A DNA stretch of 64,000 nt. It comes from Bacteroidota bacterium (GTDB lineage: Bacteria > Bacteroidota > Bacteroidia > UBA4408). The stretch is from assembly GCA_040385525.1 (NCBI GenBank), contig JAZKHE010000002.1:855200-919199 (forward strand), written 5' to 3'. This document shows, piece after piece, positions 26,701 through 32,052 of the stretch. The position numbers and the translations under genes are program-made. The stretch's first letter is position 1; each line of letters begins with the position of its first letter. The notes under the pieces are model-generated. The model saw only the letters and a program-made list of their open reading frames with translations. It did not search any database and was not told where the DNA came from.

Positions 26701-28012
26701 TTTAATTGACGCTAACACACGTAACGTATTAACTACTGCAAACATTCCTTACGGTTCTAATTTATACTTTAAAAATGGTGCAAAAGTTAAAGCAGGTTCA
26801 TTAATCTGCGACTGGGATCCATATAACGCGGTTATCTTATCGGAGTTAGCAGGTATTATTGAATTCGAAAGCTTAGACGAAAACGTTACTTACCGCGAGG
26901 AAAGTGATGAGCAAACAGGCTTTAAAGAAAAAGTAGTAATTGAAACTCGTGATAAAACTAAAAACCCGTCTATTAAAGTAGTAGATAAAAAAGGTGAAGT
27001 TTTAAAAACATACAACATTCCGGTGGGTGCGCACATTACAGTAAATAATGGCGACAAAATCGAAACAGGTCAGATTTTAGTTAAAATACCTCGTTCAACT
27101 GGTCGTTCAGGCGATATCACAGGTGGTTTACCACGTGTAACTGAGTTGTTTGAGGCTCGTAATCCATCTAACCCAGCTGTTGTTACAGAAATTGACGGTA
27201 TTGTTTCTTTCGGTAAAATTAAGCGTGGTAATAGAGAGATTATTATTGAAGCTAAAACAGGCGAAATTAAAAAATACTTGGTGCCATTATCTAAACACAT
27301 TTTAGTGCAAGAAAATGACTTTGTACGTGCTGGTTTTGCTTTATCTGATGGTTCAATAACTCCAGATGATATTTTATCTATTAAAGGACCAACTGCTGTT
27401 CAAGAGTATTTAGTAAACGAAGTACAAGAGGTTTACCGTTTGCAAGGTGTGAAAATTAACGATAAACACTTTGAGGTAATTGTACGTCAAATGATGCGTA
27501 AAGTACAAATTGACGATCCAGGTGATACTAAATTCTTAGAAAAACAATTGGCTAACAAAATCGACTTTATGGAAGAAAACGATACGCTTTACGGAAAAGT
27601 GTATGTTGTAAATCCAGGCGATTCTGATAGCTTAAAAGCTGGTCAGTTAGTATCTGCACGCCGTTTAAGAGACGAAAACTCAATGTTAAAACGTAAAGAC
27701 ATGAAGTTAGTTGAGGCTCGTGAGGCAATTCCTGCAACATCTACACAAATATTGCAAGGTATTACTCGTGCTTCGTTACAAACTAATAGCTTTATTAGTG
27801 CTGCATCGTTCCAAGAAACTACAAAAGTATTGAACGAAGCTGCAGTTAGCGGAAAAGTTGACGAATTAAAAGGCTTAAAAGAAAACGTAATTGTAGGTCA
27901 CTTAATTCCTGCGGGAACTGGTTTACGTAGCTACGAAAAAACAATTGTAGGTTCGCAAGAAGAATACGATTTGTTAATGAGTACAAAACGTGAAAAAGCT
28001 CGTGTAGAATAA
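23720..28012 (+). CDS. rpoC: DNA-directed RNA polymerase subunit beta'
   Basis: 1430 aa. Zn-binding CxxC motifs. NADFDGD catalytic loop. Confidence 0.98.
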
Positions 28013-28034
28013 TTCTTACAAAAGCAATACATAA

Positions 28035-28068
28035 AAAAAACGCTCTCGATTTCGGGGGCGTTTTTTTG
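28035..28068 (+). terminator. Rho-independent terminator after rpoC
   Basis: AAAACGCUCUCGA-UU-UCGGGGGCGUUUU hairpin (with G:U wobbles) followed by TTTTTTTG. Confidence 0.7.
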
Positions 28069-28074
28069 TTCGTT

Positions 28075-29098
28075 TTAATCTGCGAGGTACGAAGCAGTCT
28101 AACGGATTTGTTGAGTCCATTAGTTTGCCACGTCATACTTCCTTGCAAAGTTTAGCTCTGGATTTTAAATCTGCGTGGTACGAAGCAGTCTAACGGTTTT
28201 GTTACTTCCATTAGTTTGCCACGTCATACTTCCTCGCAAAGTTTAGCGTTGTGTGTTTTAAATCTGCGAGGTACGAAGCAGTCTAATGAGTTCTGTAACG
28301 CCAATTGTTTAAACTTTCTGGACAACCAAGATGCTAAACTACTCCTCTAACGTATCAAATAAATCTAACCATTTAGGATTAAACGATTGAATTAAATCTG
28401 TTTTAGTGTTTCGTGAGCCTGCTTTTAGCTGTTTCTCACGCTTCATAGCTTCTGCAATTCCTTCAAACTGTTCATAATAAACCAATTTGTTTATGTTGTA
28501 TCGTGCTGAAAAACTTGTTGGACGAAATTTAGTTTTGTGTTGGTGTATACGTTGTTTTATACTTGATGTTACTCCAACATATAATACTGTGTTAGATGGG
28601 TTGGTGATAATATAAATATAGCCTCCTTTTTCCATTTTTATTTTTTAAGTCTGTGTATAAATCTGCGAGGTACCTGGCAGTCTAACGGATTTGTTTTGCC
28701 CATTAGTTTACTTCGTCATTCTTCCTCGCAAAGTTTAGCTCTAGATTTTAAATCTGCGTGGTACGTGGCAGTCCAGTGGGTTTTGTTAGGCTCATTAGAT
28801 TGCTTCGTCGTTCCTCCTCGCAAAGTTGAGCTGTATGTAAATCTGCGAGGTACGTGGCAGTCTAACGGATTTTGTTGCACCCATTAGTTTGCCACGTCGT
28901 TCCTCCTCGCAAAGTTTTTTGGTGCTTAAATCTGCGAGGTACGAAGCAGTCCAATGGTTTTGATAGGCTCATTAGTTTGCCACGTCGTTCCTCCTCGCAA
29001 AGTTTGGGTAGTACTTAAATCTGCGAGGTACGAAGCAGTCCAACGGGTTTTGATAGGCTCATTAGATTGCTTCGTCATGCTTCCTCGCAAATTTTGTT
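28075..29098. repeat. Tandem array of eight ~88-92-bp palindromic (hairpin-forming) repeat units; unit 3 is truncated by the GIY-YIG gene
   Basis: Approximate unit starts: 28076, 28166, 28257 (truncated after ~35 bp), 28658, 28747, 28838, 28927, 29015. Consensus TAAATCTGCGAGGTACGAAGCAGTCTAACGGNTTTGTT(N6-9)CATTAGTTTGCCACGTCNTNCTTCCTCGCAAAGTTT. Every unit carries terminal inverted repeats CTGCGAGG / CCTCGCAAAG plus an inner ACG(A/T)(A/G)GCA / TGC(T/C)(T/A)CGT inverted-repeat pair. Nearly the whole unit is conserved. There are no unique spacers. Confidence 0.85.
28339..28635 (-). CDS. Small stand-alone GIY-YIG (URI-domain) nuclease family protein
   Basis: 98 aa. GYIYIITNPSNTVLYVGVT is the GIY...YIG motif. 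Conserved R (KQRIHQH) and E (EQFEGIAEAMKREKQLK) residues. Embedded inside the repeat array. Confidence 0.8.
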   Translation of the reverse strand: MEKGGYIYIITNPSNTVLYVGVTSSIKQRIHQHKTKFRPTSFSARYNINKLVYYEQFEGIAEAMKREKQLKAGSRNTKTDLIQSFNPKWLDLFDTLEE

Positions 29099-29440
29099 TT
29101 AACCCACCTTCTTCGTCAGTACAATCATTTCGCTTACTTGTATTTCTAGTGTGTAGCGTTTGTTGCCTTCTTTATCGGTGTAGTTTTTGTTTACTAGTTT
29201 GCCTTCAATAGCAACTTCGCTTCCTTTTTCTAAAAGCTTTTGTGCAGCTTCGGCTTGCTTGCCCCACACTGTAATGTTGTGCCATTGTGTATCTGTTTTA
29301 TAGTTACCGCTTTTGTCTTTAATTGTTTCGTTGGTAGCGAGCGAAAATTTAGCAAAACATTTGTTGTTATCTAACATTTTAAACTCTGGTGTTGCACCTA
29401 AATTACCAATTAATTGTACTTTGTTACGCATTGTGTTCAT
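29099..29440 (-). CDS. ssb: Single-stranded DNA-binding protein, short OB-fold form lacking an acidic C-terminal tail
   Basis: 113 aa. KVQLIGNLGATPE and WHNITVWGKQAE follow the SSB OB-fold pattern. Ends ...IVLTKKVG with no D/E-rich tail. Confidence 0.75.
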   Translation of the reverse strand: MNTMRNKVQLIGNLGATPEFKMLDNNKCFAKFSLATNETIKDKSGNYKTDTQWHNITVWGKQAEAAQKLLEKGSEVAIEGKLVNKNYTDKEGNKRYTLEIQVSEMIVLTKKVG

Positions 29441-29730
29441 GTTACTTAGTTTTAAATTATTAATATTACTTTAGTTAATGTGTAAGAAAATTGTAAAAGC
29501 GCTTTTGTGATTTTCTGACGGTGCAAAGTAACGGCGAGCTAAAAAATTTACTCGGTTTTTACTTGCTTACACTCGATTTTATTCACTTGTAAGTATTTGC
29601 AAACGAATAGTTTATTTATAATGTATTGAAAATGAGTGCTGTTTTGATTTTTAAATTAATTTGTTATATTTACAAAGCAAAAGCGTTTAAAATTTGTAAT
29701 TGCGCTTAGCGACAAGTTAGCAGTAATGCC

Positions 29731-30582
29731 ATGATAAACCATCTTGAAATAATTATTCTTTGTTCTAAGAAAAATATATTCGACTATGTCGACATATTTC
29801 TTGACCCTATTGTAGCTATAATAACCTTTATTTTAGGTATATGGGTTTCAAATTATTTTACAAATAAAAAAGAAAATAAAAAGCTAAGTGACACAATAGA
29901 CTATTTTGACTTATATTATTTAGACCAAAAAAAGTCAATTGATGACCAAATAGAAGCTTTCGGAAAACTAGAAAAAGACTTGGACAATTATATAAATACA
30001 AATGGACTTCCATATCAATATATTCTACAACCATATTCAATTTTAGAAACCATAAATAAAGAGACATTATTAAATGCTTGGACTAAAATTAAAAACAGAG
30101 ACCCAAAAACTCTTATGAATATTCTCAAATTTATTGAATTTATTAAAACTCTATTCACATTTCATCAAGATTATCATAAAGACTTTTTAATTAGACAAAA
30201 TGAGTTACGTAATAAATGGCAAAAAGAGATTAACGAATTCATGGTACTTAAAGGCAAAATGTTAGAATTGCCTAAGGAAGAAATAATCAAGAACATGGTT
30301 CTTTCTGAGTTTAATAATATTTGTAATAATTGGTTGAAACCAGAAAATGTTATCGCATTTAAGGACACTATAAAATATCTTGTTGAACCTGTTATGAATT
30401 TGTATGGACCTATTTATCAAAAAAATCCGGAAGACAAAAAAATCTATGAATTACTTTTGCATGTTCAAAAAATAGACGCAATATATAAAGAATGGACTAG
30501 TGATATCTCTCAGTATAAAGTCGGTTTAAATGGTTCAATACAAAAAGTGACAGCAAAACTTTCTGAACTAAATGAGAAGTGA
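29731..30582 (+). CDS. Hypothetical membrane-anchored protein with no recognisable domain, in a very AT-rich segment
   Basis: 283 aa. One N-terminal TM (IVAIITFILGIWV). The rest is predicted helical/coiled. Local GC is visibly lower than in neighbouring ribosomal genes. Confidence 0.45.
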   Translation: MINHLEIIILCSKKNIFDYVDIFLDPIVAIITFILGIWVSNYFTNKKENKKLSDTIDYFDLYYLDQKKSIDDQIEAFGKLEKDLDNYINTNGLPYQYILQPYSILETINKETLLNAWTKIKNRDPKTLMNILKFIEFIKTLFTFHQDYHKDFLIRQNELRNKWQKEINEFMVLKGKMLELPKEEIIKNMVLSEFNNICNNWLKPENVIAFKDTIKYLVEPVMNLYGPIYQKNPEDKKIYELLLHVQKIDAIYKEWTSDISQYKVGLNGSIQKVTAKLSELNEK

Positions 30583-30803
30583 AACGTTAAGCACTACTGC
30601 TAACTGCAGCTACCCAAAAGGCGGCGTTTCGTGGTTAAATCAAGCTTTGTACTTCTATCAAAGTTTCTGCTTGGTTTACAGTTTAGTGCTTCGAAATCAG
30701 CTGCTTAGCAAATTGCCAACCGTTATACCATTTTAGAGAACCATACACAAATAGACACGCTATATAAATTTTATTCAATGTGAATTTTTTAAATAAATAA
30801 AAA

Positions 30804-31445
30804 ATGAGAATACATACACAAGAAACACAGGCAAGTTTAACGCCACAAAAAGCACTTCAAATTTTAAAAGAAGGCAACAACAGATTTATTAATAATTTAA
30901 AAGCAAACAGAGACTTGTTGGAACAAGCAGGTTATACTGCTGATGGACAGTTTCCATTTGCTGTTATTTTAAGTTGTATAGACAGCCGCACTTCTACTGA
31001 ATTAATTTTTGACCAAGGTTTGGGTGATGTTTTCAGCGTTAGAATTGCAGGAAATATTATTAACGAAGATATTTTAGGTAGTATGGAATTTGCCTGTAAA
31101 GTGGCAGGCTCAAAAATAATAGTTGTGTTAGGACACACAAAATGTGGGGCAGTAAAAGGAGCTTGTGACCACATAGAAATGGGTAATTTAACGGCATTGT
31201 TAAGTAAAATACAACCTGCAGTTTATGACGAAAAAACGGTAACAGAAAATCGAACATCTAAAAATTCAGATTTTGTTGAAAAAGTAGCCGTTATAAATGT
31301 GAAAAGAACAGTACAAGGAATTGTACAACGAAGTCCGATTTTAAAAGAAATGATAGAAAAAGGAGAAATTGGTATTGTTGGAGGCACTCACGACATTGCA
31401 ACAGGAAAAGTAACTTTTTTTGAAACCGAATTTAAAGGCATATAA
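30804..31445 (+). CDS. Beta-class carbonic anhydrase
   Basis: Zinc ligand motifs CIDSR and GHTKCGAV. Confidence 0.85.
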   Translation: MRIHTQETQASLTPQKALQILKEGNNRFINNLKANRDLLEQAGYTADGQFPFAVILSCIDSRTSTELIFDQGLGDVFSVRIAGNIINEDILGSMEFACKVAGSKIIVVLGHTKCGAVKGACDHIEMGNLTALLSKIQPAVYDEKTVTENRTSKNSDFVEKVAVINVKRTVQGIVQRSPILKEMIEKGEIGIVGGTHDIATGKVTFFETEFKGI

Positions 31446-31611
31446 CAGCGGTTTGGCTTAATGGCGGATTCAGTGCTTCGTATGAAGTTTTGTAGATATG
31501 TCGCAAATTCAGTGCTGGCAAATAGTTTTTTTAAGCCTAAACGCAAATACACAAAACGTTAGTTTGTATAGCAATACCAAACTAGAAAGTATTACTAATT
31601 TAAAATAATAA

Positions 31612-32052
31612 ATGAATACAAATTCTGATTGCGAAATTTATAGTTCTAGAGAACTAAATGCAACTGTAGAGATAGTTTATAAAGCATTTGCCAATCCTTT
31701 GCATTTAAAAAATTGGTGGGGACCAGAAGGATTTACAAATACAATACACGAATTTGATTTGCGACCTGAAGGAAAGTGGATTTTAACAATGCACGGACCC
31801 GAAAAAGGCAACTATGAAAATTCTTCTGTTTTTAAAATTGTTAAACAAAATGAACTTATAAGTTGGAAAAGGATTTCACAACCGTTATTTGATATGGAAA
31901 TTGCGTTTGAAAAAATTGCTGATTCTAAAACTCAAATTTCGTTTCGAATGATTTTTGAAACTGTTGAAGCATGCAACAAAATAAGACCTTTTGCAGAACC
32001 AAAAAATGAAGAAAACTTTGATAGGCTGGAAAAAGAAATTTTGAATATGTAA
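31612..32052 (+). CDS. SRPBCC (Aha1/polyketide-cyclase-like) family protein
   Basis: 146 aa. Aha1-like N-terminal signature ATVEIVYKAFANPLHLKNWWGPEGF. Confidence 0.6.
   Translation: MNTNSDCEIYSSRELNATVEIVYKAFANPLHLKNWWGPEGFTNTIHEFDLRPEGKWILTMHGPEKGNYENSSVFKIVKQNELISWKRISQPLFDMEIAFEKIADSKTQISFRMIFETVEACNKIRPFAEPKNEENFDRLEKEILNM

Follow-up and report, generated by a model that had tools for sequence, protein, structure and literature searches.

What links a small nuclease gene to the array of hairpin-type repeats in whose midst it lies? The question is raised by a locus of a Bacteroidota bacterium (GenBank assembly GCA_040385525.1, contig JAZKHE010000002.1), where eight repeat units of about 90 bp, bordered by rpoC on one side and by a short ssb gene on the other, accommodate a small GIY-YIG gene. 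The window denotes here the whole 64-kb stretch of DNA that was analyzed, and all locus coordinates refer to it. The initial annotation, made from the sequence alone, proposed that the gene had been inserted into a palindromic repeat unit, likened the arrangement to a REPtron and regarded the encoded enzyme as a candidate for nicking or mobilizing the units.

The 3' end of rpoC is located at position 28012 and is followed by a GC-rich hairpin with a T-run (28034-28067). Repeat units 1 and 2, of about 91 bp each, occupy positions 28073-28255 beyond the 3' end of the nuclease gene, as delimited by TRF, core matches at 28076 and 28167 and the alignment. The truncated unit 3 (28256-28311) comprises the + strand arm AAATCTGCGAGGTACGAAGCAGTCTAA, with a core match at 28260 free of mismatches, and a loop-like stretch recognized in the alignment; in gene orientation its arm is a reverse arm that begins about 51 nt past the nuclease stop codon. 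The ssnA-like gene (28339-28635, minus strand) encodes a single-domain GIY-YIG nuclease of 98 aa (Pfam PF01541, E 2.2e-15). Upstream of its start, units 4-8 follow with a period of about 89 bp (28651-29098; TRF; cores at 28659, 28750, 28839, 28928 and 29017) and touch the stop codon of the ssb-like gene (29099-29440, minus strand, 113 aa), which ends directly after the array. TRF reports the two halves as array 1 (28073-28286, period 91, 2.3 copies, 89% matches) and array 2 (28651-29091, period 89, 4.9 copies), and the 24-nt core AAATCTGCGAGGTACGAAGCAGTC, searched with up to three mismatches, is found eight times, always on the + strand between 28076 and 29040, where shuffles expect no match. 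The presence of a stand-alone nuclease gene on the minus strand within the array, with units on either side, is thus confirmed.

Two independent Logan short-read contigs, equivalent to window positions 27436-28911 and 28976-31914, reproduce both halves of the array at 100% identity, so that it is no assembly artefact. The Logan contigs of the same sample break at 28912-28975, within units 6-7, so that the unit count of the MAG contig depends on the data that spanned this interval. A 50-aa ORF has been called publicly inside units 7-8 (28926-29090, minus strand; equivalent to L004 9558-9710), with peptides like LRGGTTWQTNEP; it consists of repeat sequence and is almost certainly spurious, and similar repeat-derived peptides probably litter the annotations of Bacteroidota. 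The 283-aa ORF at 29731-30582 (+ strand) has no Pfam match. The product of the ssb-like gene is an OB fold that lacks the usual C-terminal tail; the vicinity of a gene for an ssDNA-binding protein to an ssDNA nuclease locus is suggestive, and an SSB homolog is present in none of the 80 homolog loci described below.

The frame of reference for this locus is provided by Chenal et al. (2025, Nat Commun; PMC11893778), who described the Ssn proteins as single-domain GIY-YIG site-specific ssDNA nucleases with genes located between cognate hairpin repeats (NTS/SRM). The NTS repeat CGTCATTCCCGCGMAVGCGGGAATCYRG is recognized by the 94-aa SsnA of Neisseria meningitidis exclusively in ssDNA form, with cleavage a few nucleotides upstream of the repeat, and the enzyme is inactive on dsDNA and RNA (PMC11893778). 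Binding is most dependent on the cytosine after the palindrome and cleavage on the three bases before it (GTC in N. meningitidis; PMC11893778). The role of Ssn in Neisseria is to limit the integration of transforming ssDNA. Thousands of homologs (cd10448) were found across phyla, 71% of them with at least one Ssn-related motif (SRM) and 42% with motifs on both sides, and SRM flanks accordingly support membership in the Ssn family without being required for it (PMC11893778).

The nuclease of the window agrees with this description. Its GIY-YIG domain extends from residue 5 to residue 76 and is accompanied by no other domain, and its length of 98 aa falls within the range of less than 150 aa that characterizes the single-domain Ssn proteins (cd10448). 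As a reference ortholog we used a 94-aa ORF of N. gonorrhoeae (NZ_CP119142.1), which lies amid seven canonical NTS and carries Y6, Y17 and E64 at the positions mutated by Chenal et al. BLASTP aligned the two proteins with 42% identity over 91 of 94 aa (97% of the ortholog's length; pairwise E 8e-23), within the bounds set for SsnA similarity in PMC11893778 (BLASTP E <1e-10 over at least 75% of the query), and tblastn against the 7.3-Gb PLSDB database found the N. gonorrhoeae ortholog with an E value of 1e-13. The residues Y8, Y19 and E67 align with Y6, Y17 and E64 of SsnA and are invariant in five aligned homologs, as is R29. AlphaFold2 predicts one compact domain with a confident GIY-YIG-like fold (pLDDT 93), whose best counterparts among PDB structures are UPF0213 BH0048 (1ZG2, E 7e-4), Slx1 and the N-terminal domain of UvrC; a PDB sequence search with the nuclease gave no significant match, and an Ssn structure is absent from the PDB. 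By homology, the nuclease is a member of the Ssn family of site-specific ssDNA nucleases.

The sole match among NCBIfam models is sub-threshold and concerns TIGR01453, a group I intron endonuclease model (19.3 versus a cut-off of 56 bits). A GIY-YIG homing endonuclease of the I-TevI type was considered and rejected, given the lack of an extra domain, the intergenic location between rpoC and ssb and a TIGR01453 score far under the cut-off. With regard to the reference ortholog, the PLSDB "plasmid" records NZ_CP119142.1 (locus at record positions 1880219-1883476) and NZ_CP119140.1 have a size of 2.17 Mb and are evidently chromosomes of N. gonorrhoeae; the ssnA ortholog in NZ_CP119142.1 is missing from the PLSDB gene table and has an apparently non-ATG start (ATT).

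The position of the nuclease gene relative to unit 3 required a correction of the initial annotation, according to which this unit starts normally, diverges and is interrupted by the gene. Its beginning is indeed near-identical to that of the other units over 31 nt (28256 to 28286), and a weaker similarity of roughly 57%, a by-eye count on the alignment, continues from there to about 28311. The lost 3' arm of the unit was sought on both sides of the gene, where the best local alignment is no better than those of shuffles (80% score at least as high). The conserved core of unit 4 begins at 28659, which is 24 nt past the nuclease ATG. Because the missing 3' arm is undetectable on either side, the gene-bearing segment takes the place of the 3' third of unit 3, and a clean insertion splitting one unit did not stand up to scrutiny. 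A resemblance of the last nuclease codons TTAGAGGAGTAG to the arm start TTTGCGAGGAAGTA was likewise dismissed as a match at chance level. Genes of the Ssn family natively lie between such arms, and this location is no accident of the window locus.

Each unit of about 90 bp is an inverted heterodimer of two related, diverged SRM-like arm types. The + strand arm reads AAATCTGCGAGGTACG(AA/TG)GCAGTC and the gene-strand arm AAACTTTGCGAGGA(G/A)G(A/T)A(C/T)GACG(AA/TG)GCAA(T/A)C; the "long" arm on the gene strand corresponds to AAACTTTGCGAGGAGGAACGACGAAGCAATC and the "short" arm on the other strand to AAATCTGCGAGGTACGAAGCAGTC. Every arm has one of two dinucleotides, AA or TG in the case of the + arm and CA or TT in that of its partner; they are shuffled among the units, which looks like recombination or gene conversion. 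Only in units 6 and 8 are the combinations self-complementary, and, in line with this, it is in these two alone that the entire unit, as ssDNA, forms a hairpin significantly better than shuffles do (z -3.1 and -3.5); z ranges from +0.15 to -1.0 in the five remaining full units, so that the initial designation of the units as palindromic is valid for two of them and fails for the other five. Single arms are weak hairpins with a closing stem of 4-5 bp and z above -1.2. The GTC triplet 5' of the palindrome is absent from all 15 arms of the window, where AAC or AAA is found in its place; AAAC or AAAT precedes the palindrome instead of a CGTC, TGTC or CCTC tag, whereas about 90% of the arms in the homolog loci carry YGTC. 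Both arm types keep the TGCGAGG...GAAGCA core and, behind the palindrome, the C. The closing stem CTGC/GCAG of the + strand arm represents a compensatory T:A to C:G change in comparison with the canonical ATTGC/GCAAT, which argues that the small hairpin is still of importance.

The relation between gene and repeat was investigated in 80 metagenomic loci (L011-L090) with homologs at 46-62% identity. The published SRM pattern HGTCWYN(0-2)YYVSBRHN(0-5)WNVSBRGN(0-2)RNCYNB, which we validated on the canonical NTS, has no match in the 64-kb window and occurs near the gene in only two of these 80 loci. An unbiased count of 9-mers within 400 bp of the gene revealed GTCATTGCG in 59 and GAAGCAATC in 56 of the 80 loci, and a regular expression for arms of the type YGTCWTTGCGAR...GAAGCAATC detected 337 copies in total. 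Their density amounts to 2.97/kb up to 500 bp from the GIY-YIG gene, 0.24/kb at more than 1.5 kb and 0.005/kb in shuffled loci. A maximum is reached 0-100 bp upstream of the start by forward arms (TTGCGAG...AAGCAATC) and 0-100 bp downstream of the stop by reverse arms, with 4-5 arms/kb at the peaks versus about 0.1/kb beyond 3 kb and virtually none inside the gene. Among the 63 loci with at least 300 nt of flank on both sides, 49 (78%) have an arm within 300 nt of the gene, 54% have arms on both sides and 41% exhibit the layout with a forward arm upstream and a reverse arm downstream. Nuclease and repeat are therefore a specific pair and no chance neighborhood. The initial annotation had staked its proposal on homologs adjacent to the repeat and on intact catalytic residues, and both are found, the former in the 49 of 63 loci and the latter with Y8, Y19 and E67.

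The closest homolog (70% identity, five contigs) has hairpins of the type CCGTCATTGCGAG...GAAGCAATC... on both flanks that resemble the arms of the window. A minimal form is represented by a Flavobacterium homolog with a single forward arm 57 nt upstream and a single reverse arm that begins at the stop codon, and in 11 of the 80 loci tandem arrays containing such arms adjoin the gene. A profile HMM built from the arms of the other loci only was searched against the 64 kb with nhmmer and matched three of the 15 window arms, namely the gene-strand arms of unit 5 (E 5.9e-5), unit 8 (E 5.6e-4) and unit 7 (E 0.15), and nothing else above its reporting threshold. The canonical-type arm of unit 5 (28792-28826, minus strand; TTGCGAGGAGGAACGACGAAGCAATC) is the best preserved one and identical over 27 nt to arms of the unrelated loci L013 and L022; the canonical-type arm of unit 8 is located at 29059-29091 on the same strand, that of the gene. 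Since a profile without any window sequence recognizes its units and the unit 5 arm recurs in L013 and L022, the window repeat is, as judged from this similarity, a local derivative of the repeat family that goes with the gene family in many organisms. The window gene accordingly has units on either side that are homologous to the arms flanking other homologs, and the supposed link between nuclease and palindromic repeat is corroborated by the homolog loci, where the same repeat family flanks the gene, in fixed inverted orientation, at the frequencies given above.

The repeat class of this branch shares with NTS only the GTCWT head and the AATC tail, and its interior is different and variable in length; this different palindrome explains why the published SRM pattern misses the class. 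The literature motif seems to be blind to a whole branch, with matches in two of 80 loci versus 49 of 63 loci with a TTGCGA...GCAATC arm within 300 nt. Because the YGTCWTTGCGAR...GAAGCAATC class, which is used by the large Bacteroidota-centered Ssn branch, escapes the pattern, the association is probably more frequent than the Ssn/repeat pairs counted in the literature suggest. Some of the homolog loci are noteworthy in their own right. L016, L053 and L085 harbor two GIY-YIG paralogs each at distances of 0.3-5 kb, with plentiful arms in at least L016, and are possible examples of local cassette duplication. The homolog in L040 (9800-10500), whose closest named relatives belong to Fibrobacter, is flanked by the near-canonical Neisseria-type NTS CGTCATTCCCGCGCAGGCGGGAATCC and, on both sides, by a second, unrelated repeat (GCGAGGATGACGAAGGAAGGGA...).

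Beyond the array, no arm-like or core copies exist in the 64-kb window. The exact core AATCTGCGNGGTACNNNGCAGTC has three matches in 185,579 species-representative genomes, all in unrelated phyla and about as many as expected by chance, and the exact unit appears to be private to the source lineage. A search of the array against Rfam, at gathering thresholds and in permissive mode, returned no RNA family.

Altogether, it is highly probable that the window contains an Ssn-family locus, in which clustered Ssn-related hairpin repeats surround the gene of the single-domain GIY-YIG endonuclease that is cognate to them. By homology with SsnA, the protein would bind an arm only in single-stranded DNA, as it arises during replication, repair, recombination or DNA uptake, where it would read the small hairpin together with its flanking bases and cut the same strand a few nucleotides 5' of the arm. 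Cleavage of ssDNA at the units of the window, and any biological role of it, would follow from the behavior of the characterized family members. The array would most likely have grown as one dimer unit beside the gene was duplicated in tandem and recombined.

Three rival explanations rank below the Ssn-family explanation. The strongest one, still rather unlikely in our assessment, regards the locus as a relic, an Ssn homolog amid a decaying minisatellite of former SRMs that are no longer recognized and persist through tandem-repeat dynamics. It would account for the missing GTC tag in 15 of 15 arms and the unmatched SRM pattern, for five of seven full units that fold no better than shuffles, for dinucleotide combinations that leave only units 6 and 8 self-complementary, for the lack of dispersed copies in the 64-kb window and for the weak single-arm hairpins, of which only three in 15 reach the reporting threshold of the profile. 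The nuclease gene is, however, intact with conserved catalytic residues, and both arm types retain their core as well as the cytosine behind the palindrome, on which binding in Neisseria chiefly depends. The compensatory change in the closing stem of the + arm also speaks against mere decay, and the same AAM replacement tag on both diverged arm types fits a shifted specificity equally well. The most remote of the three, a very improbable one, ascribes the units an RNA-level function, either as terminators or as mRNA-stabilizing structures between the convergent rpoC, nuclease and ssb genes, without relation to the nuclease activity. The array does sit between the 3' ends of convergent genes, and such roles have been credited to REP-type repeats (PMC3733652), but rpoC has its own hairpin and T-run, the units lack a T-run and are mostly not stable hairpins, Rfam offers no match and SsnA does not act on RNA (PMC11893778). 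Moreover, a function of this kind would leave the family-wide link to one gene and the fixed orientation unexplained.

A third proposal, which we consider improbable, is that of an active mobile element, a GIY-YIG "REPtron" in which an IS-like or homing arm-gene-arm cassette has entered a pre-existing array and the enzyme spreads the repeats. Chenal et al. bring it up in their discussion (PMC11893778), and it can draw on an inverted-arm architecture reminiscent of terminal inverted repeats, on an arm frequency of about 48 times the chance level even far from the gene, on homologs in unrelated gene neighborhoods of different lineages and on the two paralogs in three loci. These observations contrast with an identical Flavobacterium protein that has the same gene context in 23 of 23 contigs read, from many samples, and thus looks stably inherited. 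Neither a target-site duplication nor an empty site was found; look-ups of the exact nuclease and ssb proteins, intended to find empty-site or copy-number variants, turned up only the same strain, and the window locus has no clean insertion boundaries. To our knowledge, GIY-YIG nucleases have no strand-transfer activity and transposition has been demonstrated for no Ssn, both of which count against an active element. Of the proposal that the enzyme nicks or mobilizes the units, the first half is a likely prediction, considering that the family cuts ssDNA, but neither dsDNA nor RNA, 5' of such hairpins (PMC11893778), while mobilization is conjecture.

For the Ssn-family locus of the window, a more far-reaching scenario can be formulated, which is improbable. 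The specificity may have shifted from GTC to AAM in this Bacteroidota lineage, on both arm types, and nicking of ssDNA at the arms by the enzyme may have driven the local tandem amplification of the dimer unit. If true, the locus would document directly, at the genome level, that Ssn nucleases propagate their repeats, and it would provide a "dedicated enzyme" for the superfamily of CGTC-type REPs, which has none according to Di Nocera et al. (2013; PMC3733652).

The reading of the initial annotation was right in substance and has already been published, as both the association and the analogy to RAYT/REP systems appeared in March 2025 (PMC11893778), so that its claim of novelty lapses. A nuclease/repeat partnership was nonetheless deduced from the raw sequence and has since been established by independent experiments on the family, which validates this kind of inference. 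The window locus is a somewhat aberrant further member of the Ssn/SRM systems that raises no new question, and its additions to the field are modest. With its altered tag and its tandem units, it represents a natural variant for specificity studies or the development of ssDNA tools.

A comparison with known systems puts the locus into perspective. The stand-alone GIY-YIG nucleases UPF0213/YhbQ and Slx1 likewise consist of a minimal GIY-YIG domain and come closest in structure to the predicted model; there is no significant sequence match of the nuclease to any PDB chain. Slx1 cleaves branched dsDNA in a structure-specific manner and requires Slx4, and we know of no link of UPF0213/YhbQ or Slx1 to a repeat family. 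Homing endonucleases of the I-TevI type possess a separate DNA-binding domain and reside in introns or inteins or are free-standing, splitting their target gene.

With the REPtron, whose enzyme RAYT (TnpA-REP) is a Y1 HUH protein, the locus has in common a small nuclease gene with inverted short hairpin repeats on either side, a repeat type that forms a cluster in the window and, at the homolog loci, also occurs at a distance from the gene, and an enzyme acting on the single-stranded hairpin form, the latter being expected for the window by homology with SsnA. The differences are fundamental, since a hydrolytic GIY-YIG nuclease and an HUH tyrosine transesterase are unrelated in fold and chemistry. 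Unlike for the REPtron enzyme, we know of no covalent intermediate or strand transfer for Ssn. The exact window repeat is, in contrast to REPs, undispersed, at least within the 64-kb window. Membership in the REPtrons is rejected, as the sole ORF between the arrays encodes a GIY-YIG protein and not an IS200-like Y1 HUH transposase. What endures of the REPtron comparison is a functional likeness, and the same analogy was drawn in PMC11893778, where the NTS-ssnA-NTS layout was likened to insertion sequences and to IS200/RAYT-REP-BIME systems.

The closest correspondence is that with the Ssn systems (NTS/SRM) themselves. In both cases, the gene between oriented hairpin repeats encodes a protein of about 95 aa that consists of a single GIY-YIG domain and has the same catalytic residues, the family repeats are also present away from the gene, and family arms have the GTCWT head and the AATC tail. 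The palindrome of this branch, TTGCGAG...GAAGCAA with a variable insert of 8-50 nt, differs from that of NTS (ATTCCCGCG...CGCGGGAAT), and the window departs from the Neisseria systems by the replacement of the GTC tag with AAC/AAA, by heterodimer units of about 90 bp that are repeated eight times in tandem and by the lack of dispersed copies in 64 kb.

Finally, Di Nocera et al. (PMC3733652) have defined CGTC-tagged REPs, which include dRS3 of Neisseria and RPE-4/6 of Rickettsia and also occur in Bacteroidetes and Chlorobi; they are mostly head-to-head dimers and "lack a dedicated transposase". Arms at the homolog loci are similar in that they start with YGTC (TGTCA in 153 and CGTCA in 96 of 337) and are often paired head-to-head, whereas those of the window lack the tag and have stems of 4-5 bp with a long interior instead of 8-9 bp stems with loops of 4-5 nt. 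The accessible part of PMC11893778 does not cite this classification from 2013 (PMC3733652), although dRS3 is listed there as CGTC-1. The two studies, read side by side, imply that the CGTC-type REPs have their "missing" enzyme partner in Ssn.
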